A stretch of 64,000 bases of DNA from Acidobacteriota bacterium (GCA_965249245.1 CBDFLV010000006.1:1927628-1991627); one strand, 5' to 3'. Shown: positions 16,820 to 37,766, numbered from the stretch's first letter. The notes: generated by a model from the sequence alone, not told the origin. A program made the numbers and translations.

Positions 16820-18220
16820 TCATTTTCTGCTTACCCAATCCAGGTCAAAACAGCCTGACTTCACCCCCTCTAAACAATCTGCTGTCTTACAGGGTCCACG
16901 TCGGGACTGACAGATCTGCGCGTGGGCTATGGCCATGGTAAATAGCCCCTGCTCGATAAAGTAGGCATTGGGCCAGCGTTGATGATCGCTCCCTCGGGCT
17001 CGGCCTCTCCGTTTCCGGCGCTTTCGCAGAATCGATCGCAGACGCCCTCGTACCCATCCATCCACCCCCTTAAACGTCGCTGGATGGCTGTGTTGAAAGT
17101 ACCCAAACCAACCCCGTAGGATTGGGTTGAGCGTCTCAATGGTCTGCTTCAGACTGTGGCCATTCGTCCTTCGGGTCAGTGGGCGGACTCGCTCCCGCAG
17201 CTTCTTTTCACTGCTTTTGCGAGGCCATTTAAGCCCTCTTTCAAAGTGGTAACCCAGAAAGTCGAACCCACCCTTTTGGCGAGCATCCACTACCCGGGTC
17301 TTGTTCGGGTTCAGTCGTAATCCACGCTGCGCCAGCTCCTTTCGAAGCTTCCTCAGCGCTTCTCGCGCCTGTCGCTCATCTCGGCATAGAATCACCCCAT
17401 CATCGGCATAGCGGATCATCACTTCCCCGGCACGCTCCATCTCTTCATCCACTGGATGTAAATACAGATTAGCCAGCAACGGACTGATCACCGCACCTTG
17501 AGGAGTTCCTCTCTCCGGCTTCCACTTCTTCATCCCATCCAGAACTTCTTGTTCCAGATAGCTTCGAATCAGCTTCAGCACTCGACCGTCTGAGACTTCC
17601 TTCTCCACTTCTTGCATCAAGATCTCCGGGTCAATGCAGTCAAAGTATTTCTCGATGTCTGCATCAACCACCCAGTGATAGCCTTCTTCCAGTCGTCGTT
17701 GCACCTCGCGCAGTGCATCCTTGCAGCTTCGCTGCGGCCGGAATCCATAACTGTGCCGGCAGAACTTCTTTTCGAAGATTGGTTCCAGCACCTGGCGAAG
17801 GGATGTCTGCACCACTCTGTCCCGTACTGTCGGGATCCCCAGCGGTCGCTTCTTCCCTCCTCCTTTATCGATCCAGTGTCGGCGCACTGCTCGCGGTTGA
17901 TAGCGATCGTCTTTCAGTTCCTGGTGCAGTTGCTCCAGTTCCCTTTCCAATCGCCACTCAAACTTCTGGATACTTTGGCCATCCACTCCACCGGCTCCTT
18001 TCCGTCGGCGTACCTTTCGCCACGCCGCTTCCAGACTCCGATTTCTGTAGACCTTGTCAATCAAGCTGAACCATTTGCCTCCTTTCACTCCTGTTTCCAG
18101 GGTCGTCAGCATGCGTTCGGTCCACACTTCCGCTTCCACCCAGCTCCATTTCTGGCTCTCGGCTTCTCTGCCTTGCTTAGGAGTCTCCTCCACTTTCGAC
18201 AGTTCCTCTTGCTTCGTCAT
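16820..18220 (-). CDS. ltrA: Group II intron reverse transcriptase/maturase (no endonuclease domain)
   Basis: GAGGVDG, RPLGIPTVRDR, SYGFRP, VVDADI, GTPQGAVISPLLANLYL, YADD, FDFLGY and domain X. The last 23 aa are read from the transposon end. Probable ATG at 18220. Confidence 0.95.
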   Translation of the reverse strand: MTKQEELSKVEETPKQGREAESQKWSWVEAEVWTERMLTTLETGVKGGKWFSLIDKVYRNRSLEAAWRKVRRRKGAGGVDGQSIQKFEWRLERELEQLHQELKDDRYQPRAVRRHWIDKGGGKKRPLGIPTVRDRVVQTSLRQVLEPIFEKKFCRHSYGFRPQRSCKDALREVQRRLEEGYHWVVDADIEKYFDCIDPEILMQEVEKEVSDGRVLKLIRSYLEQEVLDGMKKWKPERGTPQGAVISPLLANLYLHPVDEEMERAGEVMIRYADDGVILCRDERQAREALRKLRKELAQRGLRLNPNKTRVVDARQKGGFDFLGYHFERGLKWPRKSSEKKLRERVRPLTRRTNGHSLKQTIETLNPILRGWFGYFQHSHPATFKGVDGWVRGRLRSILRKRRKRRGRARGSDHQRWPNAYFIEQGLFTMAIAHAQICQSRRGPCKTADCLEGVKSGCFDLDWVSRK

Positions 18221-18654
18221 TGACTCTACACATCCACCTTCCTGGCGGGCCTTCGCTCCACCGGCATTACCCGGCTTCTTCACTACTACGCCGCCTCTGA
18301 CTTCTGCGGGTCTCTTACCAGACCGACCTTTCGCAGACCTCCTCGCTTTACGTCACTTGAACTTCCCACCATTCCATCTCCAACCACCCCAAGGGTTAAC
18401 AAGATGCCTTTTTCACGTTACCCATCAGGCTCTTGTCCGTGTCAGGTTTCCCTTCCATTCGAGCTTCGCCATTTCCCAGCAGGCTCGCTGTCCCCTCTGA
18501 GCCGAATCGAGTTCGTCTCCTACAGACTGGTGGTTCTCCTTCGGCTGCTTCCCACCCCACCTCACGATGACGCAGTTGCCGTCGAATACGGGCCGGAGAA
18601 CGTTTGCCCGGTAGGGACTTTCACCCTACTGTTCAAGTGCGCTTACGAGCGCAC
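16892..18654 (-). mobile_element. Group II intron copy 1, 3'-truncated (domains V-VI missing)
   Basis: 5' end GTGCG at 18654. DI-DIII match copy 2. The sequence switches to the transposon end at GGACCC|TGTAA. Confidence 0.9.
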
Positions 18655-18706
18655 TAGGAGGACCCTCCGTGGTCCGATCAGATCGCCGCGCGGAGGCGGC
18701 TCCTAC
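18655..18706 (-). repeat. GTAG-type REP doublet forming the 5' exon of intron copy 1
   Basis: GTAGGAGCCGCCTCCGCGCGGCGATCTGATCGGACCACGGAGGGTCCTCCTA|GTGCG. An intact copy is at 29579-29631. Confidence 0.85.
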
Positions 18707-18741
18707 ATTCAGGGTTCAGCGTTCCAAACGGCGTACTGGAA

Positions 18742-19428
18742 TCAAAAAAGATCCAGGTTGCGGGGGCGCCGTGGCGGCGGATCGAGACATTTGGGTGAAT
18801 CGAAATCGGTGCGATTGACCGCCGGGTTTACGGGCACCTTCTCCATTTGGCGGGACGGAAAAGGGCCCAGCATCTCCTTTAGCCGGGCCGGACTGGATGC
18901 GGCATCCAGCCACAAATCCAGCATCGATCGATCCAGGATGGCGGGCATTCGATCATGCATACCGGCAACCAGGTCGTTGGGAGGAGTGGTCAGAATAGTG
19001 CAGGTCTCGATGCTTTCCCCTGCTTCATTGAGCCAGCGATCCCAGAGCCCTGCAAAAGAGAACAACTCTCGATCTTTCAAACGGAAGTGAAAGGGCTGCT
19101 TGAAACCACGCTCCCGCCGCCACTCATAGAACCCATCCGAGGGAATCAGGCACCGGCGGCTCCGGAATGAGTCCCGAAAGGAGAGCTTTCGATCCACGGT
19201 CTCAGAGCGGGCGTTGATGAAAGACGAAAGATCGGACGACCGGCTGAAATGGGGGATCAGTCCCCACTTCATGAACCTGGCCATCCGAGGCCCCTCCGCA
19301 GGCGGGAGAACGACCAGAACATCTTGAGAGGGAGCGATGTTGTAACGCACTTCCAACTCGGGCCGCTCGTTCAGTTCGAAGAAAGTCAGAACTTCATCAA
19401 CTCTGGTCAGAGTAAAGCGCCCGCACAT
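18742..19428 (-). CDS. SOS response-associated peptidase (SRAP/YedK, abasic-site protection)
   Basis: Starts MCGRF (catalytic Cys2). RYNIAPSQ, INARSET, GFYEW, HDRMP. Confidence 0.93.
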   Translation of the reverse strand: MCGRFTLTRVDEVLTFFELNERPELEVRYNIAPSQDVLVVLPPAEGPRMARFMKWGLIPHFSRSSDLSSFINARSETVDRKLSFRDSFRSRRCLIPSDGFYEWRRERGFKQPFHFRLKDRELFSFAGLWDRWLNEAGESIETCTILTTPPNDLVAGMHDRMPAILDRSMLDLWLDAASSPARLKEMLGPFPSRQMEKVPVNPAVNRTDFDSPKCLDPPPRRPRNLDLF

Positions 19429-19661
19429 TGGCTCGTGTTCTCTCCTTCGTGACGGCCCGACCTGTGACCCCCTGATCAAGGTCCCGGACAAGCTCGGATC
19501 CCTGCTATTATAGGGGAATCGTGGCCACATTGATGTTGATTCCCAGGCACTGCAAATCCTTGCTTTTTGGAACTCTATGGATCATGATTTTCGGAACATC
19601 GCTGCCCGGGACAGCGTCTATAGGACCTGAAAATCTGTCCTGAGGGCAGGCGAAGGACTTT

Positions 19662-20042
19662 ATGAGCTCTGAGGTGAAATCTCCTCCTGAGGAGTCAGAC
19701 AAGAAGCAGAAGTGGCCTCCGTACAGCATGGTCGACCCGCGCATGCGGCGGATTTACTTCAAGTTCTACAAAGAGACCTACAAGTCTTCTCAGATCGACC
19801 GCAAGACCAAAGAACTCATCGCGATTGCGGCTTCTCTGGGTTATCAATGTGAGGGCTGCCTGGAAGGGCACATCAAGAAGGCTATCGAGTACGGAGCCAC
19901 CAAAGAGGAGATCAGCGAGTCCATTGCCATCACCATGGGTGTCGCGGCCGCCTCAGTCGTAGATCAAACTGACCTTATTTCCGAGAAGCTGGGAATCGGT
20001 CATTTCAAACCGTCCGTTGATTCTGAGTGCGATTCCAAGTAA
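19662..20042 (+). CDS. Carboxymuconolactone decarboxylase/AhpD-family protein
   Basis: KTKELIAIA...CEGCLEGHIKKAIEYGATKEEI. Confidence 0.85.
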   Translation: MSSEVKSPPEESDKKQKWPPYSMVDPRMRRIYFKFYKETYKSSQIDRKTKELIAIAASLGYQCEGCLEGHIKKAIEYGATKEEISESIAITMGVAAASVVDQTDLISEKLGIGHFKPSVDSECDSK

Positions 20043-20190
20043 CACTTGAAAGTTTCCTGAGAAGTGCTGCCGCAACCTGTCCCGTGACGGCTCCAAAGAG
20101 CAGGCAACCCTCCTCTTGTGGGTTACAATGCCAAATGGAAATCAAACAGGCCCGAGGCCGGGCTGAAATCCAGGTGCAATGGAGGATCCG

Positions 20191-21756
20191 ATGAAGTTCA
20201 GTATCTTATCAGCCATCCTGATCAGCGGACTCTTCACTCCCTGGCTTGCCGCCGCTTAAAAGACGCTCGAAGTTGTCCGTTTTCCCGAACGGCGCAACGT
20301 CGAGCTTCAGATGATTCACTCTAAGCGTGTGCCGACTGCCACCATGAAGGCCAAGTTCCGCTTCCAGGAAGGACAGATGCGGATCGATGTCTCCTACACG
20401 AAGATGAAGCCGGCGGTCCTGTTTGGGGGTGAGATTACTTCCTATGTTCTGTGGGCGGTCAGCCGCGACGGAAAAGCGGAGAATCTGGGCGAGCTCTGGG
20501 TGCGACCGAAAAAGACCGACGACACCCTGCGTTTTTCAACCGGGCAGCGCACCTTTGCGTTGATGGTCACGGCAGAGCCGTACTACCAGATCGACAAGCC
20601 CTCCGACTCGCTCATATTCTGGAATGCGGGAAGCCGGGATCCACAGGCGCCGAGTTCCCCGATCAGTTTCACCGATCTGGGGGAGCCTTCGCGGATCGCT
20701 ATCCAGCGGCTCGACTTCGTCAAATACGACGGCAAGACGCCACTGGATGTTCTGCAGGCGGAAACGACTTACGAGACGGCTGAGCGGATGAAGGCCGGGG
20801 ATTACGCGTCTGCTCTGATGGGAGCCGCTTTGACTACGTTGCAGCAGGCCCGACAGATGGCGCGCACCAGCGCTTCGCGCAGGGGTGCGCAGGACTATGC
20901 TCGCAGATCGGTCGCCTCCAGCAACGAGGCCATCCGGATCACACTGCGCAGACTCGAGGCCGACCAGCTTGATGCGGAGATCCGGGAGCGACGGGCGGAG
21001 ATAGACCGGCTGGAGAAACGGGCCCGGGAGGCTGAGGATCAAGCCCGGAGGGTTCGGGAAGAGGCCGACCGCCAGGTGGCTGCCCTGAAAGGCCAAAAAA
21101 GCGCAGCGGAACAGCAAGTCTCATCAGCGCGGGCCCTGCTGAGCCAGATCCAGTCCGACAAGGAACGCATCGAAGGAGAGCGGGACAGCCTCAACGAGGC
21201 CACAGTGGAGCTGAAAAGCCAGAGACAGGCTCTGACCCGCTCCATTTCCGACCTGGAATCGGAGAGCGACCGGCTCAGGGCAGAGAAAGAGCGCCTGGCC
21301 CGGGAAAAAGCCGAGGTGGAACTGGACAGACAGAAGACTGAGGAGCGGCTTCAGGCGGCTCTCTCGCAGGTAGCAGACACTCGTGACTCGGCCCGGGGAA
21401 TGATTCTCAACCTGCCCGATATTCTCTTTGACGTGGACAAGGCAACTCTCAAGACCGAACTGAAAACGGCGGTTGCCAAACTGGCCGGAATCCTGCTCAT
21501 TATGTCTGAACTTCGCGTGCGAATCGAAGGACACACCGATTCCTCCGGGTCCGAAGAATACAATCTTGCGCTCTCCACTGAGAGGTCTCAGGGCGTGCTC
21601 TCTTTTCTGGGGGGAGAAGGTATCGACGAATCCCGCATAACGGCGGTCGGCTACGGCCTGACCCGTCCCATTGCAAGTAACGACACGCGCGAAGGGAGAC
21701 GAAAGAATCGCCGTGTCGAAATCATCATCAGCGATCGGGAGATTGGGGAGGAGTAG
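20191..21756 (+). pseudogene. OmpA-family protein with coiled coil; in-frame TAA immediately after the signal peptide
   Basis: GGAGG then ATG 20191 MKFSILSAILISGLFTPWLAAA, TAA 20257-20259, then in frame with the 20311 ORF. C-terminal OmpA motifs IEGHTDS..YNLALS.ER and NRRVEI. Confidence 0.8.
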
Positions 21757-22495
21757 GGGCTGAGGCCGGGACGGGCTCTTCCGTATCGAACGTGATGGAG
21801 GTGTCCACTTCGAAGCGCTTGAAACTCTCGTAGGTGATCACCATCTTGATCCGACGTGGACCCTGGCTAAAATTGAGATAGTCGTCGGCCCCCGTCCACG
21901 TCGGGAACCAGAGGCCTTCCTCCACCTCCTCGCGAATCGTTTCGAAGGCTGGATATTTGTTGTTCTTGTGATCGGGGACGATTTTCCCACGGGTCATGAC
22001 GATCAGGAAATCGACGTCGTCCACGTAGATGCGACCCTGGAAGTAACGCATTCCTTTTTTCTTGTGCCTGGGTTCTACGTCAAAAACGAAGGTGTTCAAC
22101 TCGTCGACCAGTTCCTTGCCGACGTAGTCAATCTCATATTCGGAAGCCGTCTCCCTCGTGAGCATGAAGGGCTGCCGCGAAATCGCGTCGTCGAAGTCCT
22201 CCTGGGTAACCCGGATGTTGGGCATGCGCCCCCGGTCGTGGGTCTTGCGGAGCTGCCGCTGTCCAGCCGTATCGAAATAAATGTCATACTCTACAATCCG
22301 CTCCCCCCGGACGTAGCCATCGTCACTCAACTCCTGAAAGACGATGGTCTGAGAATAAGTGTAGTGCTGAAACTCCGCCTCGAGGCGGGACTCCGCCTCC
22401 AGAAAACGATCGATGACCTCTCCGGGTCGCACTCCTTCGCCGAGGGCAGCGCCGCCACTCAAGACAATCAAAGGGATCAGGCTTTTCAACTTCAC
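21728..22495 (-). CDS. Secreted hypothetical protein (outer-membrane sorting-protein-like)
   Basis: 255 aa with signal peptide and YVGKELVDELNTFVFDVEP..YFQGRIYVD motif. Confidence 0.7.
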   Translation of the reverse strand: MKLKSLIPLIVLSGGAALGEGVRPGEVIDRFLEAESRLEAEFQHYTYSQTIVFQELSDDGYVRGERIVEYDIYFDTAGQRQLRKTHDRGRMPNIRVTQEDFDDAISRQPFMLTRETASEYEIDYVGKELVDELNTFVFDVEPRHKKKGMRYFQGRIYVDDVDFLIVMTRGKIVPDHKNNKYPAFETIREEVEEGLWFPTWTGADDYLNFSQGPRRIKMVITYESFKRFEVDTSITFDTEEPVPASAPTPPQSPDR

Positions 22496-22502
22496 AACAG
22501 TC

Positions 22503-22667
22503 CTAGTGCACTGTCCGGAAAGTTCACGCCGCTACTTCGGGCGTCTTTTCGCCGACAGCTTTGTTGCGCTACCTCGAAAGACTCCCGGCCTTCCTGCGTC
22601 GCGCGCCTCACTGTCGACGAAAATTCATCCCGAATTAACACCGCGAACTTCCCGGACAGTACACTAG
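22503..22667. mobile_element. 165-bp MITE, copy 1
   Basis: CTAG-TGCACTGTCCGGAAAGTTC...GAACTTCCCGGACAGTACA-CTAG. Near-identical copy at 35256-35420. Confidence 0.88.
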
Positions 22668-22850
22668 ATGCAAAAAATCAGTCGGCGTACTCATTTTTTC
22701 TATTATTACGCAGTCGCTGGCATTCCTGCCTTCTCCGTAGTTTCCTTGATTTCCAAGGGGCCTTGCGGCTTTTCGGCCGGTCTGTCGGCTTTAACTTTCA
22801 ACCTTTAACCTTCAACTTCCAACCGGTAACGGCGCTCGCGCCAGCGAGCG

Positions 22851-23801
22851 CTATCCAGAGCGGCTCGCCAAAAGATCCTCCACTTCCTGAACCGTCGGAA
22901 TCCCACCACGGGCCCCCGCGCGTGTGCAGGACAGGGCACCCGCAGCGTTGGCAAAGCGCAAGCAGTCCCACACATTCCCTTCGTTCAAGAGGGCATAGAT
23001 AAAGGCGCCGTGGAACACATCTCCAGCCCCGGTGCTGTCTACCGCCTGAACCTCGAAACTCGGAACTTCGTAGATCTCGCCATTCCAGAGCGCGGCGCAT
23101 CCGCGGTGGTCGCGTGTGATCGCGGTGAATCCACGCGAAGCTTCGGCAACACCCAGCAGAGCCTCTCTCCAGTCCGATGCTCCGGTAAACTGCAGGGCGA
23201 AAGTCTCGCTGGGTAAAGCAAAATCAGTCAGGGCCAGCAACTCTCCGGTTCTGCTCTGAACCTTGTCCACATCCAGGCAGACTTTCATGCCCGCATCGCT
23301 GGCCCACCGGGCGCACTGAATGGAAGCCTCCTCGTCGTGGCCGTCCAGATGCAGAATCTGGCCAGCCGCGATCCACTCCGGCTTGATTTCGTCGACCCGG
23401 TAGGAAAGAGCCGGGTCTCGGTCCCACAGAATCGTGCGCTGGCCTTCGGGATCAACCAGTATGATGGCGTACTGGCTGGAGGCTCCGGCTACGACCTCCA
23501 CCAGATGAATATCCATCGGCTCGGGCTGCAGGGAAGAAAGCGAAAACTGTCCGATCTCGTCGTCTCCCACCCGACCGATGTAGCGGGCTTTGAGCCCGTA
23601 TCGTCCACAAAGCGCCATTGCTGTGGCTACCTGGCCGCCGGGCAGTCTCCTGAATTCTTTGACCTGGACCTTGGAGTTGCGGCGCGGAAAGTTGGGCACG
23701 TGCACGATCCAGTCCACTGCATTGAGGCCCATGCCCACCACTTCGAACGGCCTGTGCCCAGGCAGTTCCATATCAAAACGGGCTTCTTCCAATCGATGCA
23801 C
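22851..23801 (-). CDS. PfkB-family carbohydrate kinase
   Basis: PGGQVATA, GRVGDDEIG, DSTGAGDVFHGAF. Confidence 0.9.
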   Translation of the reverse strand: MHRLEEARFDMELPGHRPFEVVGMGLNAVDWIVHVPNFPRRNSKVQVKEFRRLPGGQVATAMALCGRYGLKARYIGRVGDDEIGQFSLSSLQPEPMDIHLVEVVAGASSQYAIILVDPEGQRTILWDRDPALSYRVDEIKPEWIAAGQILHLDGHDEEASIQCARWASDAGMKVCLDVDKVQSRTGELLALTDFALPSETFALQFTGASDWREALLGVAEASRGFTAITRDHRGCAALWNGEIYEVPSFEVQAVDSTGAGDVFHGAFIYALLNEGNVWDCLRFANAAGALSCTRAGARGGIPTVQEVEDLLASRSG

Positions 23802-23816
23802 GACGCCTCAATTCTG

Positions 23817-24473
23817 TCAAATCATTCCCTCATCGGCAAAGCTGAAGTACTCTTTCTCCCCAACGATGACGTGATCCAGCACACGGATCCCGATCAGGCG
23901 GCCTACTTCCACGAGCCGGCGTGTAATCTGGAGATCTTCAGGACTGGGAGCCGGGTCGCCGCTCGGGTGATTGTGAACACAGAGCAGGCCGGCTGCGGCC
24001 GCCAGGATGGCTGGACGAAAGACCTCCCTGGGATGAACCAGCGAAGCCGTCAGCGACCCCTCCGAGACCCGAGCCAGCTTCAGGAATCGGTTCTTTCCGT
24101 TCAGAAGTACGGCCCAGAAACACTCTTTTCTGAGGTGGATCATGCGGGGCTGGAAATGACGGAATATCTGCAGGCTGCACGAGAACTTCTGACCCGGTCG
24201 CAAAGCAGGAAAGTCGAGTCGGCGAACAAGATGAAGGCCTGCCACGAGGGCCCGGGTCTGACAACGCCCAAATCCCTGATCCTGAAGTTCTCGAGTCAGT
24301 GTTCTGCAGTCTGAGCTCTCCTCCAGGACACGCAGCAGAATACGAGCTTGCCTGAGAGCAACCTCCCCCTGGCAGTTATGGGAAAGAAAGGTGGCTGCCA
24401 GCTCCAGATCCGTGAGTTCCTCGACTCCTGCAGTGAACCATCTTTGTTGAACTTCGGTGAAAGTTTCGCCCAC
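23817..24473 (-). CDS. radC: RadC/JAB-domain protein
   Basis: GSLTASLVHPREVF, HNHPSGDPAPSPED, LDHVIVG. Confidence 0.93.
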   Translation of the reverse strand: MGETFTEVQQRWFTAGVEELTDLELAATFLSHNCQGEVALRQARILLRVLEESSDCRTLTRELQDQGFGRCQTRALVAGLHLVRRLDFPALRPGQKFSCSLQIFRHFQPRMIHLRKECFWAVLLNGKNRFLKLARVSEGSLTASLVHPREVFRPAILAAAAGLLCVHNHPSGDPAPSPEDLQITRRLVEVGRLIGIRVLDHVIVGEKEYFSFADEGMI

Positions 24474-24518
24474 ATGGTTATTAACGCCGCTACTTCAAAA
24501 TGGGCGAGGATTCTTAGC

Positions 24519-24650
24519 GGTTGCTGGTTACCGGTTACCGGTTACCGGTTGGTTACTGGTTGCTGGTTGTTGGTTGTTGGTTGTTGGTTGGAAGAAGTTA
24601 AAAGTTGAAAGTTGAAAGTTGAAAGTTGAAGGTTGAAGGTTGAAGGTTGG
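24519..24650 (+). repeat. Heptamer tandem array (GGTTRCY / GGTTGTT / GTTGAAR)
   Basis: About 18 consecutive 7-mers. Related arrays occur at about 22790, 33343, 35150, 35590, 51120, 57608 and 57737. Confidence 0.9.
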
Positions 24651-24686
24651 TTTCAAGCCGGGCGACTGGGCAAGGCAGTAGTTTTC

Positions 24687-24743
24687 GTAGGGGCCGGTCT
24701 TGTGCCGGCCCGCTCAACGGGCGGCCACAAGGGTCGCCCCTAC
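24687..24743 (+). repeat. GTAG-type REP doublet (GTAGGGGCCGG...CGCCCCTAC)
   Basis: 57 bp. Further copies at 46471-46527 and 46632-46688. Confidence 0.88.
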
Positions 24744-24831
24744 GAGTCGAATCCCGGCGGTCGCGGCCCTGAGGCCAGCTTTCAAGTCCTCAACGAGGAA
24801 TGCAACCCGGAACCGTTAGAATAAACCGACA

Positions 24832-28474: not shown

Positions 28475-28495
28475 TCTGGACGTGGAACGTGGAAC

Positions 28496-28870: not shown

Positions 28871-28884
28871 ATTTCTAATGAAGC

Positions 28885-29055: not shown

Positions 29056-29417
29056 GACTTCCGCCCCAGGGCAATGTCAAAGGTGTCGACCACCAGCAGC
29101 ATGTTCAGCAGCCCGGCCGTGTAGAGATACGTGTTGCCATATTCGTAGCCCGGCGCCGTAATCTGCCCGTTTCCCAGGCCGATGAACTGTCCTGCCAGAT
29201 AAGGAAGGCCGATAGCGAGCCCGGCCATGAACTTGAGCACTCCAAAGAATCCGAAGGTAAGGCCAAAGAGGCGACCGTCCATGAACAGGCCCAGCGAGAA
29301 AAGACACAGAACCACGGCCAGAAAGACCAGGCCTCGCTTCCATCGATTCAAAAACATGTGCCCGGCCCCTGGAATCAACCACGCCAGAGTACAGGCTGCT
29401 ACAGCCTTCGCTACCAT
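29052..29417 (-). CDS. Membrane protein (DUF6677-like)
   Basis: LAWLIPGAGH...YEYGNTYLYTAGLLNML..D. Confidence 0.75.
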   Translation of the reverse strand: MVAKAVAACTLAWLIPGAGHMFLNRWKRGLVFLAVVLCLFSLGLFMDGRLFGLTFGFFGVLKFMAGLAIGLPYLAGQFIGLGNGQITAPGYEYGNTYLYTAGLLNMLLVVDTFDIALGRKS

Positions 29418-29514
29418 GCCTTTCCATCATAGAAATTAAGGTTTGACGTGGTCAAGGATCCTGTTTCATGTTCCACGTTCTTTTTGGCCGATGGGTGGTG
29501 GCTCACGGCTGGAG

Positions 29515-29631
29515 AGATCTGATCGGACCACGGAGGGTCCTCCTACACCGGGAATGTCACGGGTCGGCGAAGAGAAGAGTAGGAGCCGCTTCCATGCGGC
29601 GATCTGATCGGACCACGGAGGGTCCTCCTAC
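29515..29631 (+). repeat. BIME-like cluster of GTAGGAG REPs
   Basis: Two GATCGGACCACGGAGGGTCCTCCTAC units joined by the linker GGAATGTCACGGGTCGGCGAAG, which recurs at about 46562 (inverted) and 57678. Confidence 0.85.
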
Positions 29632-29698
29632 GCCTTGGTGGCCTGTTGTCAGATCGGGGTAGTAGCGTGTAGGGTTACCTCTTCGTCAAGAGACCAGC

Positions 29699-32062
29699 AT
29701 GGGAATCGAGCAAGTCCTTCAGAAGTGGAGCCGGCTGCGAGAAACCGGGGAAGCCACCGCCTGGATTCGACTCGAGGCCCAGCCGGCTGACTATCGGGAA
29801 CTCCCCGATGGCCTGGATTCCGGACTCGTGCAGGCCCTCGCCGCCCGCGGTATCGGTCGCCTCTATTCCCACCAGCAACAGGCCTTTGACCTGATTCGAA
29901 AGGGCGACAACCTGGTGGTCGTCACACCGACAGCCTCGGGCAAGACCCTCTGTTACAACCTGGCAGTCCTGCAGCGAATGCTGGAAGACAATCAAGCCCG
30001 AGCTCTGTACCTGTTTCCCACCAAAGCCCTGGCCCAGGATCAACTCGCCGAGCTGGCCGCCCTCACGCAGAAGCTGTCTGCGATCCCTGGAATCGATATC
30101 TACGACGGAGATACTCCGGCCGATCGGAGGCGCCGGATCCGCAAACAGGCTCGGATCGTGCTCACCAACCCGGACATGCTCCACACCGGTATCCTGCCGC
30201 ACCACCCGAAATGGATCGAGTTTTTCCAGAACCTCGAATACGTCGTTGTGGACGAGATCCACACCTATCGGGGTATCTTCGGCAGCCACGTGGCCAATGT
30301 CTTCAGACGCCTCAAACGGATCGCTCGCTTCTACAATTCCAGCCTCCAGTTCATTGCCTGCTCCGCCACCATCGCCAATCCCGACGAACTCGCCTCAGGG
30401 CTGTTCGAGGAACCGGTCGTTTCGATTGATCGAAGTGGAGCTCCCCGCGCGGCCAAGGACGTGATTCTTCTGAATCCCCCTCTTCGCAACCCCGGCCTGG
30501 GGCTGAGGCAGAGCGCCTTAACCTGCGCCCGCCGATTCGCCAGCGACCTGTTGAAGGAAGGTGTTCAGACGATTGTGTTCGCCACCAGTCGGGTGAACGT
30601 AGAGATACTGCTGCGGTACCTGCAAAAAAGCATCCCGGCAGCAGCCGGTGAGGCTTCCAGAATCCGAGGTTACCGGGGAGGCTACCTGCCACGTACCCGC
30701 AGAGAAATCGAACGGCAGCTTCGAGAGAAAGAGCTTCTGGGCGTGGTCAGCACCAACGCACTCGAGCTGGGGATTGACATCGGCAGCCTGGGGGCCTGCG
30801 TGCTGGCCGGGTACCCCGGAACGATCGCTTCCACCTGGCAGCAGATTGGACGAGCCGGCCGTCGCCGGGGCCTCTCGGTGGCCATGCTGGTGGCTCGGAA
30901 TCTTCCTCTGGACCAGTTTATCGTCAGCTGTCCGGACTACTTTTTCGACCGTTCACCTGAACGGGCTTTGATCCACCCCGACCATCTCCATATTCTTGTC
31001 AGCCACATCAAGTGTGCTGCTTTCGAGCTCCCTTTCCGCAGGGGCGAGAAGTTCGGCCACCAGGATCTCGAGGAAATCCTGACGTTCCTGGCTGAGCACG
31101 GACTGGTCACGAAGGCCGGGGATACCTGGCACTGGTCGGATGAGTCCTATCCTGCGGATTCTGTCAGTCTGCGCAGCCTGGCCGAGGAAAACTTCGTCGT
31201 CTTCAATCTAGAAAACGGAAACCGGGCGATCGCCGAAGTGGATTTCGATTCGGCACCCGAGCTGATCCACGAAGGGGCCATCTATCTTTGTGAAGGCCGG
31301 CAATACCATGTCGAAAGGCTCGATTACGCGGGACGAAAGGCCTATGCCGAGCCGGTGGACGTGGACTACTACACCGACGCCATCACCCATTCCAGACTCC
31401 GGGTTCTCACCATTGAGGAGAGCCGGGAGCACCCGCCCATGACAGTCCAACATGGTGAAGTCCACCTGGTCACGAAAGTTCCGGGCTTCAAGAAAATCCG
31501 TTTTTATACGGGTGAGAACCTGGGCTACGGAAAGGTCGAGCTTCCGGTGCACGAACTACACACCATGGGCTACTGGTTCAGCCTTCGAGAAGCCAAACTC
31601 GAGGCCATCGGCTTGACTCGCGATGAGACGATCCTGGGCTGTCTGGGACTCTCCTTTGCCCTGAACACCGTGGCCACGCTGCTGGTGATGTGCGATCCGC
31701 GAGACCTGGGCCGCTGCGTCGGCGACCGCAGCACCGCCTGGTTCGCACTCGTAGACCAGGGTGCTGTGAGGCTCTATTCATCCGGATCCTCCCCTATGGA
31801 AACCAGCCTCGACTCAGTGGGCGGCTTTGACCCCACCATTTTCCTGTTCGATAATGTGCCTGGCGGCATCGGCTTTTCCGAGAAGTTGTTCGAGAACCAT
31901 TCGGAGCTCATGCTCCAGGCACGCCGTCTGATCGAGCGGTGTCGCTGTACGGTTGGGTGTCCCTCGTGCGTTGGACCCGTCAATGAACTGGCCCAGAAAA
32001 CCCGCGGCGCCGCCCTCACAATCGCGGAGATGATCAGTACGGCGACCATTGTGACGCAGTAG
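29699..32062 (+). CDS. mrfA: DEAH helicase with DUF1998 four-Cys domain (MrfA/YprA/Hrq1 family)
   Basis: TPTASGKT, PTKALAQDQ, DEIH, SAT, TNALELGIDIG, QIGRAGR, C.C..GCPSC. Confidence 0.92.
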   Translation: MGIEQVLQKWSRLRETGEATAWIRLEAQPADYRELPDGLDSGLVQALAARGIGRLYSHQQQAFDLIRKGDNLVVVTPTASGKTLCYNLAVLQRMLEDNQARALYLFPTKALAQDQLAELAALTQKLSAIPGIDIYDGDTPADRRRRIRKQARIVLTNPDMLHTGILPHHPKWIEFFQNLEYVVVDEIHTYRGIFGSHVANVFRRLKRIARFYNSSLQFIACSATIANPDELASGLFEEPVVSIDRSGAPRAAKDVILLNPPLRNPGLGLRQSALTCARRFASDLLKEGVQTIVFATSRVNVEILLRYLQKSIPAAAGEASRIRGYRGGYLPRTRREIERQLREKELLGVVSTNALELGIDIGSLGACVLAGYPGTIASTWQQIGRAGRRRGLSVAMLVARNLPLDQFIVSCPDYFFDRSPERALIHPDHLHILVSHIKCAAFELPFRRGEKFGHQDLEEILTFLAEHGLVTKAGDTWHWSDESYPADSVSLRSLAEENFVVFNLENGNRAIAEVDFDSAPELIHEGAIYLCEGRQYHVERLDYAGRKAYAEPVDVDYYTDAITHSRLRVLTIEESREHPPMTVQHGEVHLVTKVPGFKKIRFYTGENLGYGKVELPVHELHTMGYWFSLREAKLEAIGLTRDETILGCLGLSFALNTVATLLVMCDPRDLGRCVGDRSTAWFALVDQGAVRLYSSGSSPMETSLDSVGGFDPTIFLFDNVPGGIGFSEKLFENHSELMLQARRLIERCRCTVGCPSCVGPVNELAQKTRGAALTIAEMISTATIVTQ

Positions 32063-32085
32063 ATACCGGCTTTTATGAATCAGAA

Positions 32086-33324
32086 ATGAAACTTCGCCAA
32101 CAACTGGACAGGCTATATGGCCGGGGAAACTCCCCCGTTGCAACCGAGATCGGAAGTCTGCGACTCGAACTGGAGAAGATACGAGAGCAGCAGACAAGAC
32201 ACCTGGCCGATGAAATAGACGGCTACTGGGCAGACGAAGATTCGGGCCGAACCCTCGTCATCGATCGTTCGATGCCGCTTCAGCAGCAGCATGCCGGCGT
32301 CGAGCTCGAGCACTACCTGAGCATCGACCGGAAGTCATTCGGCTTGCTTTTCGGGGACACCGATCTGTTCCATTTTGACCCTGCCAGGACGGTCTTTCTC
32401 GACACCGAGACCACCGGCCTCTCCGGAGGCGCCGGAACCTATGTCTTTCTAGTGGGGCTGGGGTACTTCGACGACTCCCGGTTCGTCATCCGCCAGTTCC
32501 TCATGCCCGGGCTGGGGGCCGAGCCGGCCCACCTCTCGGCCCTGTCCCGGCTGGTAGCTGCTAAGGGGTTTGAGCAGCTCGTGACGTTCAACGGCAGGAG
32601 CTTTGACCTGCCCCTCCTCAATGACAGGTATGTCCTCAACCGCCTGGCCAGCCCCTTTGCCGGGCTGAAGCACCTGGACCTTCTTCACCCCAGCCGTCTC
32701 CTGTGGCGCCGCAAATTCGGGAACTGCTCCCTGCAGGGATTGGAACAGTCGGTGCTGAGGTTTTACCGGGAGGGAGATATCGCCTCCCATCTGATTCCGC
32801 GCATTTTTCTGACCTTCGCCCGCTCCGGTCAGACCCACGGGCTGCGGCCCGTCCTCAGGCACAACCGGACAGATATCCTTTCCATGCTGAGCCTCTGCTG
32901 TGTCGCCTGCAGGATCCTCTGTCAAGCGGCGAAACAGGCCGAGATTGATTCGATATCTCTGGCACGCTTCTATCGAATCAGAGGCCACCGCAGCCTGGCA
33001 ATTGAATGGCTGCGGCGGGCCGTCTCGGAGCTGCCTGAAAATTCACCCGACCGCCTCCATGCGCAGTCGCGGCTGGCAGAACTGCTTCGGAAGAGCCGCT
33101 GTGAGTCCGATGCACTGCCTCTTTACCTCGACCTGATTCAGTCCTGGCCAGATCCGCCCTCCTCGATCTTCGAAGGAGCGGCGAAGATCCTCGAGCATTC
33201 AAAAAGGGACTTTGCCGCAGCTCTCGAAATTGTGGAGCAGGCTCAACGCCTTTACCCGACTTCAACCTTTGCCAGACGGCACCATCGGCTGGTCTGCCGG
33301 CGGGCCGGGAAACGGTGGTACTAG
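32086..33324 (+). CDS. mrfB: RNase H-like exonuclease with TPR tail (MrfB/YprB family)
   Basis: FLDTETTGLSGGAGT, TFNGRSFD.P, HLDLLH, HN..DI. Adjacent to mrfA. Confidence 0.88.
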   Translation: MKLRQQLDRLYGRGNSPVATEIGSLRLELEKIREQQTRHLADEIDGYWADEDSGRTLVIDRSMPLQQQHAGVELEHYLSIDRKSFGLLFGDTDLFHFDPARTVFLDTETTGLSGGAGTYVFLVGLGYFDDSRFVIRQFLMPGLGAEPAHLSALSRLVAAKGFEQLVTFNGRSFDLPLLNDRYVLNRLASPFAGLKHLDLLHPSRLLWRRKFGNCSLQGLEQSVLRFYREGDIASHLIPRIFLTFARSGQTHGLRPVLRHNRTDILSMLSLCCVACRILCQAAKQAEIDSISLARFYRIRGHRSLAIEWLRRAVSELPENSPDRLHAQSRLAELLRKSRCESDALPLYLDLIQSWPDPPSSIFEGAAKILEHSKRDFAAALEIVEQAQRLYPTSTFARRHHRLVCRRAGKRWY

Positions 33325-33454
33325 CGCTCGTTGGGCTCGCGCTGGTTGAAAGTTGAAAGTTGAAAGTTGAAAGTTAAACTCCTTCAACCTTCAACCTTTA
33401 ACCTTTAACACTGAAAGCGACAGCGAGGGGCAAATGCACTAAAATCCCGGACCG

Positions 33455-33670
33455 ATGTCTCGTAAAGTCGCGTACCGGCTGGTGATCGGTTACTTTATTG
33501 TGGCCGTGTTGACCACGATGTGGCCGATCTATCCCTTCTTCTCTCGCATCCGACCCCTGATTCTGGGGATGCCCTTTTCCATGGCCTACCTGGTCTTTCT
33601 CCTCGTTCTTTCCTTCCTTGTGCTGGTCAGTCTCTACACCTGGGAACGACGACGGGACGGGATGGAATGA
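33455..33670 (+). CDS. Small membrane partner of the symporter (DUF3311-like)
   Basis: Two TM helices with P.ILGMPF. ATGA-coupled to the symporter. Confidence 0.78.
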   Translation: MSRKVAYRLVIGYFIVAVLTTMWPIYPFFSRIRPLILGMPFSMAYLVFLLVLSFLVLVSLYTWERRRDGME

Positions 33671-35133
33671 TCGAACGCTGGGTCATCATCTTTGCGGTCA
33701 CACTTGCCTACCTTCTGGCTTCACTGGCCATAGGTCTGCTGTCGGGCCGCAAGACCAGCGCCGGAACCGAAGGTTATGTAGCCGGAGACCGGGCTCTTGG
33801 ATTCCTGGTCATGTACTTCATCATGGGCGCTTCCATTTTCAGTGCCTTTGCCTTCCTGGGTGGGCCCGGATGGGCCTATTCGAGAGGAGCCGCCGCTTTC
33901 TACATGATCGCTTACGGCCTGGCCGGTCTGGTCCCCTGGTATTTTTTCGGACCCAAGGTCGCCAGGCTGGGTCGTCGCCATCACTATGTGACCCAGGCTG
34001 AGTTACTCGCCGATCGGTATCAGAGCAGGGCTATCTCCGTTCTGCTGGCCCTGATCAGCCTGGTGGCCTTCCTTCCCTATCTGCAGCTGCAGATGCAGGG
34101 AGCCGGGTACGTCTTTTCGACGGTGACCGAGGGACGGGTTCCTGAGTGGGCCGGGGCCGCGATCGCCTATGGGGTCGTCCTTACCTATGTCTTTAAGAGC
34201 GGTGTGACGGGCGTCGGGTGGACGAACACCTTCCAGGGAATCCTGATGATGTCGCTGGCCTGGATTCTGGGTCTGTACCTGCCTTTCAAACTGTACGGGG
34301 GAGTGACCCCCATGTTCGAGCAGTTGGCCGCCAAAGCACCGGACATGTTGACGGCTCCAGGGTTGGACGAACATGGGAACCTCTGGACCTGGGGCGGCTA
34401 CTCGAGCGCCATCGCAATCTCTACGATCGGCTTCAGCGTGTGGCCTCACACCTTCATGAAAATCTATACGGCCCGCAGCATTCGCACCCTGAAACAGACG
34501 GTCGTCTTCTATCCAACCTTCCAGATCTTCCTGGTTCCCATCCTGTTCATCGGATTCTCGGCGATCCTGGCTTACCCCGGTGTGGAGCAGGCAGACACCA
34601 TCTTGCCTTTCGTCGTGACTTCCATGGATCTTCCGGCTGTGGTGGTGGGACTCTTTTGCGCCGGCGCTCTGGCGGCCTCCATGTCCACCGGAGACGCCCT
34701 GGTTCATGCGGCGGGCTCAATCCTCATCAAGGACGGCTACAGGGTCCTGCTCGAGCCCGACATGCCCGAGAAAACAGAGACCCGGTACATTCGGATTTCG
34801 GTGATCTTGATTGGCGCTGTCGCCTACTACTTCGCAGTCTTTTCCGAGGTCTCCCTGGTCTATCTGCTACTGCTGTCCTACGGAGCGATCGGCCAGTTCT
34901 TCCCGGCTGTGATCGCCACTCTCTACTGGCGGCGCTCCACGCCGGCCGGAGTTCTGGCGGGACTGGTAACGGGGTGTGTCATCACGCTGATCTGGAATCT
35001 GTTCCCGGGCCTGCAGTGGGAGGATATCCATCCCGGGATCTGGGGCCTGGTGGGCAATGTACTGGTGATGTGGACCGTGTCCCTCTCCACTCCCCCCATG
35101 CCCCCGGAACACGTGGCGCGGTTTGTGGACTAA
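33667..35133 (+). CDS. Sodium:solute symporter family protein
   Basis: FSAFAFLGGPGWAY, GALAASMST. Real start is the ATG at 33667. Confidence 0.92.
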   Translation: MIERWVIIFAVTLAYLLASLAIGLLSGRKTSAGTEGYVAGDRALGFLVMYFIMGASIFSAFAFLGGPGWAYSRGAAAFYMIAYGLAGLVPWYFFGPKVARLGRRHHYVTQAELLADRYQSRAISVLLALISLVAFLPYLQLQMQGAGYVFSTVTEGRVPEWAGAAIAYGVVLTYVFKSGVTGVGWTNTFQGILMMSLAWILGLYLPFKLYGGVTPMFEQLAAKAPDMLTAPGLDEHGNLWTWGGYSSAIAISTIGFSVWPHTFMKIYTARSIRTLKQTVVFYPTFQIFLVPILFIGFSAILAYPGVEQADTILPFVVTSMDLPAVVVGLFCAGALAASMSTGDALVHAAGSILIKDGYRVLLEPDMPEKTETRYIRISVILIGAVAYYFAVFSEVSLVYLLLLSYGAIGQFFPAVIATLYWRRSTPAGVLAGLVTGCVITLIWNLFPGLQWEDIHPGIWGLVGNVLVMWTVSLSTPPMPPEHVARFVD

Positions 35134-35255
35134 GCTCGCTCTGCTCGTGGTTATTGGTTCGGTTGAAGGTTAAAGGTTAAGAGTTGAAGGTGGTGCTCCA
35201 GATTCGAATGTGGGAGGCGCCTGTGGCGGCGACTCTGCTCTCGTGAACGTACAGG

Positions 35256-35420
35256 CTAGTGCACTGTCCCGGAAGTTCACGCCGCTACTTCGGGCGTCTT
35301 TTCGCCGACAGCTTTGTTGCGCTACCTCGAAAGAACCCCGGTCTTCCTGCGTCGCGCGCCTAGCTGGCGACGAAAATCCATCCCGAATTAACCCCGCGAA
35401 CTTCCGGGACAGTACACTAG
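35256..35420. mobile_element. 165-bp MITE, copy 2, inserted in a REP doublet
   Basis: Same terminal IRs and flanking CTAG as 22503-22667. It splits the REP at 35210-35447. Confidence 0.88.
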
Positions 35421-35667
35421 GCGGTCGCGGCCCGAGTCCCCTCCCACTCTCCCAGTTTCGAGTTTCGAGCTGGTTTCGAGCAACATGCCCACCGAGTTCC
35501 GGTTTCCCGAGTTCCGCGCAGACGAGCATTGAGTCGGCCTGAAGTGGGAGGCAGCTCGGGGCGGCGACCGGCGTTCCAGGTTCTAAGAACTTTCAACCTT
35601 CAACTTTCAACCTTTAACCGAACCGGTAACCAATAACCAGTAACCAGCAACGGCCGGGCGAGCGGCC

Positions 35668-36849
35668 CTAGAACCCCGCCCGTTCCGCCAGCCTGGGCCA
35701 GTCCCGGGCCAGGGCCAGGTTCGCCTGCAGCCCCACATCCAGATCCGCAATCGCGATCGATTCATCCACCGTGTGGGCCAGGTTTTCCTGGCCCGGGGCA
35801 AAGCCGATCACGAGCATGCCTGCATCGGCAAAGTGACCTCCGTCGGTGGCAAACCTCCACAACTCCGTCTCCTCCCGGACCTCCGTCACCGGATCCAGGG
35901 CCTGCTTGGCCCCGGTCAGCGCCGGATGGGACTCTGGAATCACATAGGCGGGCTGATAACTGGAGTATTCCATCTCCACACCCCCAAAGCTCTTCACCTG
36001 GAATTGGCGAAGTTCCACGGCGGCTGTCGAGCCTTCAATGAGACACCTCCGGGCCGTTTCCTCGAGCCGCTGCATCACATCCTCTCCTGTTTCGCCGGGA
36101 ATGTTCCGCCAGTCCAGGGTCAACCACGCCTCACCGGGGAGCACATTGGAACTCGTCTGATCGGTTCGAATCAACGTCGCAGCCAGGCTGGATGTCCCCA
36201 GCTCGGGGTCCTCTGCCATCTCCAGCGAAGCCAGTTCGTTAAGGAACCGGGCAACCACGAACAGGGGATTCACACCCGTCTCGGGAACGCTGGCATGCAC
36301 ACTGCGCCCCTGAACATGCAGGGTCAGCTCGGTACGTCCGCGATGGCCCCGTCTCAGCCGGTTCTGCGAGGCCTCGCCTACCACCACGAGCGGAACCTGA
36401 AGGTGGGTTCCCAGGTGGCGCGCACCCAGGCCACCCACTTCCTCCTGCACCACGGCACTTACGTACACATCGCCCGGCGGGGATTCCTGAGCCAGGGGGG
36501 CCACGCCATAAACCTGGGCAGCCAGGGGCCCCTTGATGTCCATGGCTCCGCGCCCCCACACCTTGCCCTCGTGAATCTCACCTCCAAAGGGGGGGAAGGG
36601 CCAGCGCGACTCGTCTCCGACGTCCACGTGGTCCAGGTGTGTGTTGAGCATGACGGCCGGTGCATCTCCTTGACCCCGGATCAGCCCGATCACGTTTCCT
36701 GCTTCATCTTCACGAACCTGATCAAAGCCGAGATGCTCCATTTCGCGGTGGACCACCCGTGCGATCTCTTCCTCCCGGCCAGGAAGACTTTGGGTCTGAA
36801 TCAGGCGTTGCAGAAACTGAACACAGGCTTCCAGATCAAATGCTTTCAT
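35668..36849 (-). CDS. M20-family metallopeptidase/deacylase (ArgE/DapE/YgeY-like)
   Basis: HLDHV, GRGAMDIKG, VQEE, HAS.P, TDG, AHT.DE. Confidence 0.9.
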   Translation of the reverse strand: MKAFDLEACVQFLQRLIQTQSLPGREEEIARVVHREMEHLGFDQVREDEAGNVIGLIRGQGDAPAVMLNTHLDHVDVGDESRWPFPPFGGEIHEGKVWGRGAMDIKGPLAAQVYGVAPLAQESPPGDVYVSAVVQEEVGGLGARHLGTHLQVPLVVVGEASQNRLRRGHRGRTELTLHVQGRSVHASVPETGVNPLFVVARFLNELASLEMAEDPELGTSSLAATLIRTDQTSSNVLPGEAWLTLDWRNIPGETGEDVMQRLEETARRCLIEGSTAAVELRQFQVKSFGGVEMEYSSYQPAYVIPESHPALTGAKQALDPVTEVREETELWRFATDGGHFADAGMLVIGFAPGQENLAHTVDESIAIADLDVGLQANLALARDWPRLAERAGF

Positions 36850-37019
36850 GGCAGTCAGCTTCCCACTCTCCCCGGAGCCTCGTCAAGTCTCTTACCGGTT
36901 CCGCGTTCCAGGGTGGGCCGCGACCTGCGGACCGAAAGAGTGGGAGCGACCTGTAACGTTTCCTCGTTCGGACCACGGAGGGTCCTCCCACCCTGGGCAT
37001 GTCACACGACGGCAAAACG

Positions 37020-37766
37020 ATAGGGGTAGGGAAAGCTCATTGGTTTGAGCCTCCCCTCCCTCCGAACCGGACGTGCGGTTCTCCCGCATCCGGCTCTCCA
37101 GTCAGTGGGGTCCACGGCGGGACTGACAGATCTGCGCGTGGGCTACGGCCATGGTAAATAGCCCCTGCTCGATAAAGTAGGCATTTTTGCCTCCTTTCAC
37201 TCCTGTTTCCAGGGTCGTCAGCATGCGTTCGGTCCACACTTCCGCTTCCACCCAGCTCCATTTCTGGCTCTCGGCTTCTCTGCCTTGCTTAGGAGTCTCC
37301 TCCACTTTCGACAGTTCCTCTTGCTTCGTCATTGACTCTACACATCCACCTTCCTGGCGGGCCTTCGCTCCACCGGCATTACCCGGCTTCTTCACTACTA
37401 CGCCGCCTCTGACTTCTGCGGGTCTCTTACCAGACCGACCTTTCGCAGACCTCCTCGCTTTACGTCACTTGAACTTCCCACCATTCCATCTCCAACCACC
37501 CCAAGGGTTAACAAGATGCCTTTTTCACGTTACCCATCAGGCTCTTGTCCGTGTCAGGTTTCCCTTCCATTCGAGCTTCGCCATTTCCCAGCAGGCTCGC
37601 TGTCCCCTCTGAGCCGAATCGAGTTCGTCTCCTACAGACTGGTGGTTCTCCTTCGGCTGCTTCCCACCCCACCTCACGATGACGCAGTTGCCGTCGAATA
37701 CGGGCCGGAGAACGTTTGCCCGGTAGGGACTTTCACCCTACTGTTCAAGTGCGCTTACGAGCGCAC
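37020..37766 (-). mobile_element. Group II intron copy 2: complete ribozyme, RT ORF internally deleted
   Basis: GTGCG 5' end at 37766, DV GAGCCGGATGCGGGAGAACCGCACGTCCGGTTC, DVI ending CCTACCCCTAT at 37020. The residual ORF joins GVKGGK directly to NAYFIEQGLF. Confidence 0.92.

Follow-up and report, generated by a model that had tools for sequence, protein, structure and literature searches.

Bacterial introns that lack an open reading frame (ORF) nearly always coexist with related introns encoding an intron-encoded protein (IEP), and non-autonomous group II introns have been described as rare in bacteria (PMC4424553). The closest described system comprises the TeI3 introns, which lack an ORF, and the TeI4 'driver' introns of Thermosynechococcus elongatus, where 17 ORF-less introns with identical breakpoints were mobilized in trans by the IEPs of related introns in Escherichia coli assays, and where the authors credited the excess of ORF-less introns to their small size (Mohr, Ghanem & Lambowitz 2010, PMC2882425). 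Group IIC introns recognize DNA hairpins by shape, pair with a very short intron-binding site 1 (IBS1) and have no endonuclease (PMC4424553, PMC4748821). Here we analyze two copies of a group II intron in a stretch of 64,000 nt from an Acidobacteriota bacterium (GCA_965249245.1 CBDFLV010000006.1:1927628-1991627; hereafter the window): copy 1, which carries a reverse transcriptase (RT)/maturase ORF and is cut short by an insertion sequence (IS), and copy 2, a 747-nt mini-intron from which most of the ORF is deleted. Both quite probably belong to one young and very large family of hairpin-targeting, endonuclease-less mobile introns, within which the mini-intron has spread as a non-autonomous element. 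The features of the two loci are summarized in Table 1.

Table 1. Features of the two intron loci, numbered from the first nucleotide of the window.
Feature	Position	Strand	Description
Insertion sequence	13441-16891	plus	3,451 bp; TGT...ACA ends; three ORFs
IS481-like DDE transposase	14429-15715		211.6 bits, just below cut-off 224 (Pfam/NCBIfam)
AAA_22 ATPase of the IS	15712-16506		Pfam/NCBIfam
88-aa ORF of the IS	16503-16769
Intron-encoded RT/maturase ORF (copy 1)	16820-18283	minus	487 aa; residues 1-464 native, last 23 read from the IS end
Copy 1	16892-18654	minus	Intron positions 1-1763 of the 1851-nt full-length element; domains I-IV and ORF; by blastn against 8 intact copies
Copy 1 5' exon target motif	18655-18675	minus	Hairpin GGACC-ACGGAG-GGTCC, then TCCTA (IBS1); read directly
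Unoccupied target-type site in the copy 2 3' flank	36970-36990	plus	GGACC-ACGGAG-GGTCC-TCCCA, then C; part of a REP-like repeat
Copy 2	37020-37766	minus	747-nt ORF-deleted mini-intron; commonest sequence of 60 intact minis
Domains V and VI of copy 2	37020-37098	minus	AGC triad, bulged A in domain VI, 3' end ...CUAU; Rfam RF00029
Remnant ORF of copy 2	37102-37395	minus	97 aa, first 70 plus last 27 IEP codons; ...LETGVKGGK/NAYFIEQG...
Deletion junction	37185-37186	minus	Intron 581/582; equivalent of 16970-18073 (1104 nt) gone; GVKGGK fused to NAYF
Exon-binding site 1 (EBS1)	37586-37590	minus	UGGGA, intron positions 177-181; copy 1 counterpart 18474-18478
Copy 2 5' exon target motif	37767-37787	minus	Hairpin GCGGC-AGGGAG-GCCGC, then TCCCA (IBS1)
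Expected ligated-exon junction of copy 2			CGCTCCCA/CGTTTTGCC

On the minus strand, both copies start with GTGCGC, at 18654 (copy 1) and 37766 (copy 2). At one position, 1574, copy 1 departs from the consensus of eight intact full-length copies found elsewhere in the genome (blastn), and its locus is without the last 88 nt of the intron, that is, the end of domain IV (DIV), DV and DVI. Its ORF contains the motif IRYADDGV, has its likelier true start at the ATG at 18220, and matches Pfam RVT_1 (6.8e-42) and GIIM (3.8e-18) as well as NCBIfam TIGR04416 (405.8 bits, cut-off 300). The intact relatives of this ORF have 465 aa and end in ...SRRGPH; in copy 1, the end of the 3,451-bp IS, which begins with TGTAAGACAGC... 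on the minus strand at the 16891/16892 boundary, takes the place of H465, the final residue, and contributes 22 further ones, so that the C-terminus has 23 new residues. Positions 1-581 and 582-747 of copy 2 aligned by blastn to positions 1-581 and 1686-1763 of copy 1, and where they align, only two sites (mini-intron positions 621 and 650) distinguish the copies. Chance resemblance is not an issue, as copies of the intron are 99-100% identical over hundreds of bases. Copy 2 retains DI (including EBS1), both ends of DIV, and DV and DVI; its GUGCG 5' end and its 3' end (...CCCUACCCCUAU) fit the GUGYG...AY rule, and DVI has a bulged A. It contains the only RF00029 (DV/DVI) match in the window (56.4 bits; gathering score 40), and both hairpins were recovered in a minimum free energy fold, while the 97-aa remnant ORF matched no protein family in the Pfam/family profile search. 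A preceding reading made from the sequence alone (hereafter the sequence-only reading) had described copy 1 as the 5' part of an intron with a YADD RT/maturase, and copy 2 as a nearly identical element with an exact in-frame deletion; blastn, the reading frames and the protein family matches agree with it on each of these points.

The genome (here called G000; 6.67 Mb in six contigs, C1 to C6, with the window at C6:1927628-1991627) was searched by blastn with both copies, and the matches were clustered into 137 fragments. The first base of the intron is present in 98 of these and the last base in 99, and RF00029 matches the genome at 99 places, with one and the same score at 92. The deletion junction was found in 80 fragments, and the left and right ORF junctions in 17 each. 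Uninterrupted copies comprise 60 mini-introns (58 of 747 nt and two of 746 nt) and eight full-length elements of 1851 nt, all eight with an open 465-aa ORF and four of them identical; 37 of the 60 intact mini-introns are identical to copy 2, and about nine ORF-bearing copies, copy 1 among them, are broken by insertion sequences. Altogether the family makes up 1.4% of the genome. The RNA that the eight potential helper copies share with the mini-introns is 99.7-100% identical between the two forms. The breakpoint is the same in all 80 deleted copies, and the modal mini-intron differs from the full-length consensus by 621 A>G and 650 A>C, with the full-length base retained at one or both positions in nine of the 58 mini-introns of 747 nt. 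Because all deleted copies share one breakpoint and show this stepwise pair of substitutions, the data point to a single 1104-nt in-frame deletion followed by multiplication, and do not fit repeated deletion. One mini-intron (C5:2145976-2146765) is 790 nt long, with a 43-nt segment resembling intron positions 643-689 inserted at 399/400. A DV/DVI match of lower score (41.9 bits) at C2:369849-369922 suggests one intron of a different family. Two other assemblies, G002 and G006, have seven and about 22 DV matches of other types; DV matches of the present type number one and two, respectively, counts that mean little in fragmented assemblies with collapsed repeats.

According to the sequence-only reading, copies 1 and 2 are interdependent halves of one retroelement, neither of them autonomous, with the immobilized RT of copy 1 helping a mobile mini-intron. 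The ORF of copy 1 is indeed intact to residue 464 of 465, with YADD and the maturase domain present, and copy 2 has every part of the ribozyme that full-length copies have outside the ORF. The genome-wide count of both forms (17 ORF-bearing copies, eight of them intact, and 80 deleted copies, 60 of them intact) makes such a pairing highly improbable: eight intact autonomous copies encode the same protein and supply both functions, a finding that the sequence-only reading had itself named as refuting it, the deleted form is far from single, and no specific link between the two loci was found, copy 1 being an IS casualty whose 3' end survives elsewhere. The RT of copy 1 may still be made, but copy 1 is then only one of at least nine possible RT sources. 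The more general part of the proposal, a mini-intron using a related RT in trans, fits the structure of the family; the choice of copy 1 as its specific helper does not.

The fate of the 3' end of copy 1 could be traced through the IS. The genome contains 37 full-length copies of this IS, many of them flanked by duplications of 4-5 bp, whereas the window copy lies between CTCGG (left) and GGGTC (right), with no target duplication. At C4:642116-645566 these flanks recur in reciprocal form (GGGTC and CTCGG) around a second IS copy, whose left side adjoins intron positions 1759-1851, comprising the end of DIV, DV and DVI, followed by a 3' exon starting with C. This fragment, at C4:642023-642115, is the last 93 nt of the intron. 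Judged by these junctions, the IS inserted into a complete copy 1 between DIV and DV with a 5-bp duplication, GACCC on the intron strand, and the window IS is read as a recombinant copy because its flanks show no target duplication. The two IS copies would have exchanged flanks, either by homologous recombination or through an assembly mis-join across the repeat, leaving the last 93 nt on another contig. On either course DV and DVI of copy 1 were separated by insertion and never replaced, so that only part of what the sequence-only reading said of the transposon end stands: it does supply 23 new C-terminal residues, but it did not take the place of DV and DVI. To the left of the IS, positions 12642-13440 of the window hold the C-terminal part of another transposase-like ORF (...YYNFVRPHS) that is repeated in the genome, and since this part adjoins the IS, the window IS would originally have lain inside a different mobile element before the exchange. 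A bolder reading is natural trans-splicing in a bacterium, in which IS-split copies such as copy 1 would remain functional by joining up with DV and DVI from a separately transcribed fragment; we consider it unlikely.

A mis-join across a 3.45-kb repeat would leave just such an IS without target duplication and a partner junction on another contig, and in a repeat-rich, metagenome-derived genome one or both intron junctions might be assembly artefacts altogether. We regard this as very improbable. The 747-nt form was assembled 60 times in this genome and is present with 100% identity in contigs of two other assemblies, and a mis-join would affect only the location of the 3' end of copy 1, leaving its interruption by the IS standing. 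The deletion junction is moreover bridged by one RNA-library contig from the probable source sample (X19 record 16), with over 31 letters to either side; those of X15, X17 and X2 extend 30 letters beyond the junction, one too few to count as bridging.

The IS is closely nested with the intron. Of its termini, 32 of 88 adjoin intron sequence, against the 1.4% of the genome that the family occupies, so that the IS hits the intron more than 25 times as often as this share predicts, with recurrent sites at intron positions 362, 471-476, 516-519 and 932-936. The site at 471-476 lies within the near-palindrome GGAGGAGACTCC. The 3,451-bp IS thus either lands or survives in intron copies far beyond expectation.

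For the type of intron, the insertion sites are the most informative. In 94 of 98 copies a perfect stem of at least 5 bp with a loop of 4-6 nt ends exactly 5 nt before the intron, while such a hairpin was found at 6.2% of 4000 random genome positions. At least six stem sequences occur (GCCGC/GCGGC, GGACC/GGTCC, GCGGC/GCCGC, GCGGG/CCCGC, GGGCC/GGCCC and GGCGCC). The 5' exon ends in TCCTA in 63 copies, in TCCCA in 33 and in a different pentamer in two, and the first base of the 3' exon is C in all 98. The target hairpins are GC-rich and part of a unit of ~80 nt resembling repetitive extragenic palindromic (REP) sequences and often arranged in tandem arrays; each unit has two such palindromes, and sites are therefore offered on both strands. 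The three main motif types have 528 instances in the genome, of which 90 are occupied, and the motif class of the empty site in the 3' flank of copy 2 (Table 1) has 295 instances, 21 of them occupied. The REP-like repeat, without this intron, is abundant also in two other species of the genus. One intact full-length copy (C3:519709-521559) has no hairpin and a 5' exon ending in AACCA, and has the appearance of an ectopic retrotransposition event. A further simple repeat, of the type GTTGAAAGTTGAAGGTTGAAAGTT, often borders the REP-like arrays, for example in the flanks at C5:300306, C6:3706 and C6:822285.

EBS1 was located in an alignment of 36 non-identical related introns that covered their first 420 nt, with 200 shuffles of the exon assignment for comparison. 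In 35 of the 36, a given 4-nt window of the alignment is complementary to the 5' exon of that same intron; the best shuffle gave 12 of 36. This covariation supports UGGG at positions 177-180, extendable to UGGGA, as EBS1, which pairs perfectly with UCCCA and with one G-U pair with UCCUA. The sense strand of the intron is the locally G-rich strand in 72 of 98 copies (Fisher p ~1e-4). This bias hints at priming at the lagging-strand template and is weak evidence, as the skew of the genome is small (~+/-0.02), the copies are clustered and co-orientation with genes is mixed in.

About 10 arrays hold two or three intron copies in neighboring repeat units, often of different kinds; at C5:1538729-1545676, for example, a mini-intron, a full-length copy and an IS-split mini-intron occur together. 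Such mixed arrays fit repeated independent hits on a tandem target. The same clustering, with copies in neighboring ~80-nt units at spacings of 80-127 nt, would also be seen if the mini-introns multiplied or persisted independently of an RT, by DNA-level duplication or gene conversion within the arrays or as protein-independent ribozymes of the HYER type. HYER elements (Liu et al. 2024) are reportedly ORF-less group IIC introns with hydrolytic cleavage of single-stranded DNA. Protein-free hydrolysis of single-stranded DNA by ORF-less IIC ribozymes has been described (10.1101/2024.08.31.610620), and like those elements the mini-intron is a compact ORF-less ribozyme of IIC type with a recognition sequence of a few nucleotides. 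It differs from them in retaining ORF remnants and in coexisting with intact helper copies, and it is known here from its sequence. An RT-free origin of the copies is in our view improbable: most of them have unrelated, unique flanks beyond the repeat, neighbors within an array are often unlike each other (full-length beside mini-intron, IS-split beside intact), the junctions are nucleotide-exact at the site that pairs with EBS1, and hydrolysis by itself copies no element. Movement of the gene-less mini-intron by a related RT in trans is, given the structure of the family, very probable.

The element has the features of a mobile group II intron: a DV/DVI model score above the gathering value, GUGYG and AY ends, an IEP with RT and maturase domains in DIV, and an EBS1-IBS1 pairing. 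The best solved-structure matches of the IEP are GsI-IIC RT (6AR1, 3.3e-68), the E. rectale RT (7UIM, 3e-65) and 5HHJ and 5HHL (both ~1e-55), followed by TeI4h (8e-43) and LtrA (2.4e-37); the top four are all IIC RTs, in a comparison that lacks classes A, B, D, E and F, none of which has a solved structure. In the Pfam search the IEP matched no HNH or other nuclease family, and the ORF ends ~35 aa after GIIM. The ribozyme outside the ORF is 453 nt (1851 minus 1398), and IBS1 is 4-5 nt. Relatives of the IEP with 53-61% identity were found at 79 loci in many phyla, including Acidobacteriota, Verrucomicrobiota and Nitrospirota, and among the 43 with a placeable 5' end, 40 have a perfect hairpin within 1-9 nt upstream, compared with 10% at random positions. 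Rfam models of D1-D4 gave only sub-threshold matches (RF01998, E 0.077; RF02003, E 0.13) and were of no help for the class. Taken together, hairpin sites, the short IBS1, the lack of an endonuclease and RT similarity identify the element as group IIC-like, which is short of proven membership of class C.

Each window copy follows closely behind a gene and shares its orientation, copy 1 being placed 87 nt past the stop of ORF 18742-19530 and copy 2 79 nt past that of ORF 37846-40752, which makes read-through transcription plausible for both. The ORF upstream of copy 1 (minus strand) begins ...MCGRFTL and has a weak NCBIfam match below the cut-off (PRK09951, E 2.1e-17); it looks like an SOS-response-associated peptidase (YedK/SRAP). 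With its modal sequence, its perfect 5-bp IBS1 and its sense orientation just downstream of a gene, copy 2 is an ordinary member of the family and probably competent for splicing. At least 85% of the sampled words of the copy 2 locus are present in 14 runs of eight studies, which are not drawn on as evidence. Over region 36800-37990, assembled contigs from one DNA run and three metatranscriptome runs contain no joint that omits precisely 37020-37766, and such contigs say nothing on splicing. A single joint from 36995 to 37773, with eight other letters between (DNA run X2), belongs to another repeat-array locus and is no splice product. The high depth of the intron in RNA-library contigs was likewise discarded as a sign of transcription, given a repeat of ~100 copies and possible DNA carry-over.

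Signs of recent movement come from contigs binned with G002 and G006, in both of which the 747-nt sequence is present with 100% identity. A G006-binned contig has flanks 99.93% identical to G000 C5:2113459-2116458 and carries the mini-intron exactly at ...GCGGCTCCCA/CACTTTGCC, while the same site in G000 is contiguous (...GCATGGAAGCGGCTCCCA/CACTTTGCC...) and empty, and shows the hairpin, IBS1 and C typical of the family's targets. In a G002 contig, the mini-intron is uninterrupted at a place where the G000 copy is split by a 1.6-kb IS. Core DNA of the two bins is only 70-81% identical to G000, and the polymorphic contigs probably derive from a G000-like strain and were mis-binned. The copy 1 flank in G002 and G006 is likewise 70-81% identical to that of G000, and the match ends before the repeat. 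These observations bear on whether the burst is over and most copies, including both in the window, are inert relics eroded by the IS. Such an end state would agree with ~30% of copies being interrupted by IS elements and with the crowding of IS termini at the intron, and we consider it unlikely though not negligible. The identity of 37 of 60 intact mini-introns, the four identical full-length copies among eight with open ORFs, and the occupied and empty alleles within 99.9%-identical DNA all speak for recent activity, and with 90 of 528 motif sites filled the targets are unsaturated.

We propose the following course of events for the spread of this family. As the sequences show, the deletion removed the RT and maturase domains and left DI-DIII, the base of DIV, DV and DVI, and the resulting 747-nt mini-intron would have spread to ~80 sites as a non-autonomous element. 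Its RNA would be bound and spliced in trans by the RT/maturase of ORF-bearing copies, eight of which are intact, and the two would form a particle. This ribonucleoprotein would recognize single-stranded DNA hairpins of the ~80-nt REP-like repeat, with EBS1 (UGGGA) pairing with TCC(C/T)A in the five nucleotides past the stem and with reverse splicing before C. Since the IEP has no nuclease domain, the cDNA would be made from a replication-fork primer. The structure of the family, the single deletion, the parts retained in the mini-intron, the target rule and the site polymorphism are seen in the sequences themselves; for the action of the IEP in trans, reverse splicing and priming at forks we rely on the T. 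elongatus precedent.

Several points weigh against this account. Production of the RT, splicing and present-day movement of the mini-intron are all deduced from sequence. With ~29 of 97 typed copies broken by IS elements, the family may be waning and not growing, and gene conversion among ~100 near-identical copies could inflate its apparent youth and blur the genealogy given by the two substitutions. The polymorphic contigs probably reflect presence and absence within one population and not spread across species, and the exchange between the two IS copies could be an assembly mis-join. The DV triad of this intron, AGC, sits uneasily with class C, membership of which is not proven: Oceanobacillus iheyensis, the source of the best-known IIC ribozyme, has CGC. 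A review, in its passage on the triad, gives 'CGC for some introns'.

Compared with its closest precedent, the present family resembles TeI3 in that one ORF deletion has the same breakpoints in every copy, that remnants of both the N- and the C-terminal end of the ORF persist, and that IS elements have hit some copies (PMC2882425). As expected of a non-autonomous intron of this kind, the one shared deletion is accompanied here by close IEP-encoding copies, by many independent sites with exon pairing and by presence/absence variation. The two differ in numbers (17 ORF-less and 11 ORF-containing introns there, compared with ~80 and 17 here), in class (IIB/CL-type versus IIC-like) and in the remnant ORF, which is frame-shifted in TeI3 and in frame here. 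TeI3 uses sequence-defined sites with families of diverged EBS, whereas a single unchanged EBS1 serves hundreds of REP-like hairpins in the present genome, and mobilization in trans has been shown by experiment for TeI3 and is proposed from comparison here.

With the IIC introns B.h.I1, O.i.I1, GsI-IIC and E. rectale IIC, the family shares an endonuclease-less IEP, a small ribozyme and a very short IBS1, together with insertion a few nucleotides 3' of a sequence-variable stem-loop, in sense orientation and just downstream of genes (PMC4424553, PMC4748821). It differs from terminator-targeting IIC introns in that its stem-loops belong to a REP-like tandem repeat without a T-run and in its AGC triad. 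The IIC-attC introns of group II (Leon, Quiroga, Centron, Roy; see PMC4424553) are likewise a IIC lineage retargeted from terminators to other imperfect palindromes that fold in single-stranded DNA; the target here is no integron attC site, and no integron context was seen. In exploiting a plentiful palindromic repeat outside genes as a harmless place to insert, the intron resembles IS1397, ISPpu9 and ISPpu10, which target REP sequences or bacterial interspersed mosaic elements, and two of nine copies of a Pseudomonas putida group II intron are REP-associated (Tobes & Pareja 2006, PMC1525189). Unlike those IS elements, the present intron would insert by reverse splicing of RNA and not by DNA transposition, and 94 of 98 copies are associated with the repeat.

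Among 1,790 representative bacterial genomes surveyed, the highest number of introns was 101, in Arthrospira platensis, and many of these are flagged short_orf or interrupted in a table of that work; the term 'ORF-less' does not occur in its supplementary tables (PMC8919778). The ~80 deletion derivatives and 17 parents reported here, amounting to 1.4% of a 6.7-Mb genome, thus match that maximum in total. A literature search that left subscription journals largely uncovered gave no description of an equally large IIC family that targets REP-like repeats. Three points stand out: a single non-autonomous derivative reaches ~80 copies, REP-like arrays that have no T-run serve as targets, and an IS is tightly nested with the intron. 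It is possible, though rather doubtful, that this is a live bacterial system comparable to long and short interspersed nuclear elements (LINE/SINE), perhaps the largest non-autonomous group II intron family in a bacterium, in which a few intact copies would drive ~80 mini-introns into hundreds of REP-like hairpins that act as neutral sites, still inserting in a sponge-associated population while the IS preferentially knocks out copies.

In SINE/LINE pairs, and in those of miniature inverted-repeat transposable elements and transposons, a short non-autonomous derivative likewise outnumbers its autonomous parent. The family is in this sense a known kind of parasite of a parasite, unusual in scale, and it extends existing concepts in scale and type of target and changes none of them. 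The 747-nt ribozyme, with its helper and its target of a hairpin plus 5 nt, could be a convenient test substrate, and the family offers a natural system for studying why shorter intron RNAs out-compete their parents, how a IIC-type particle reads DNA hairpins other than terminators, and how repeats, introns and insertion sequences become nested and give rise to rearrangements.

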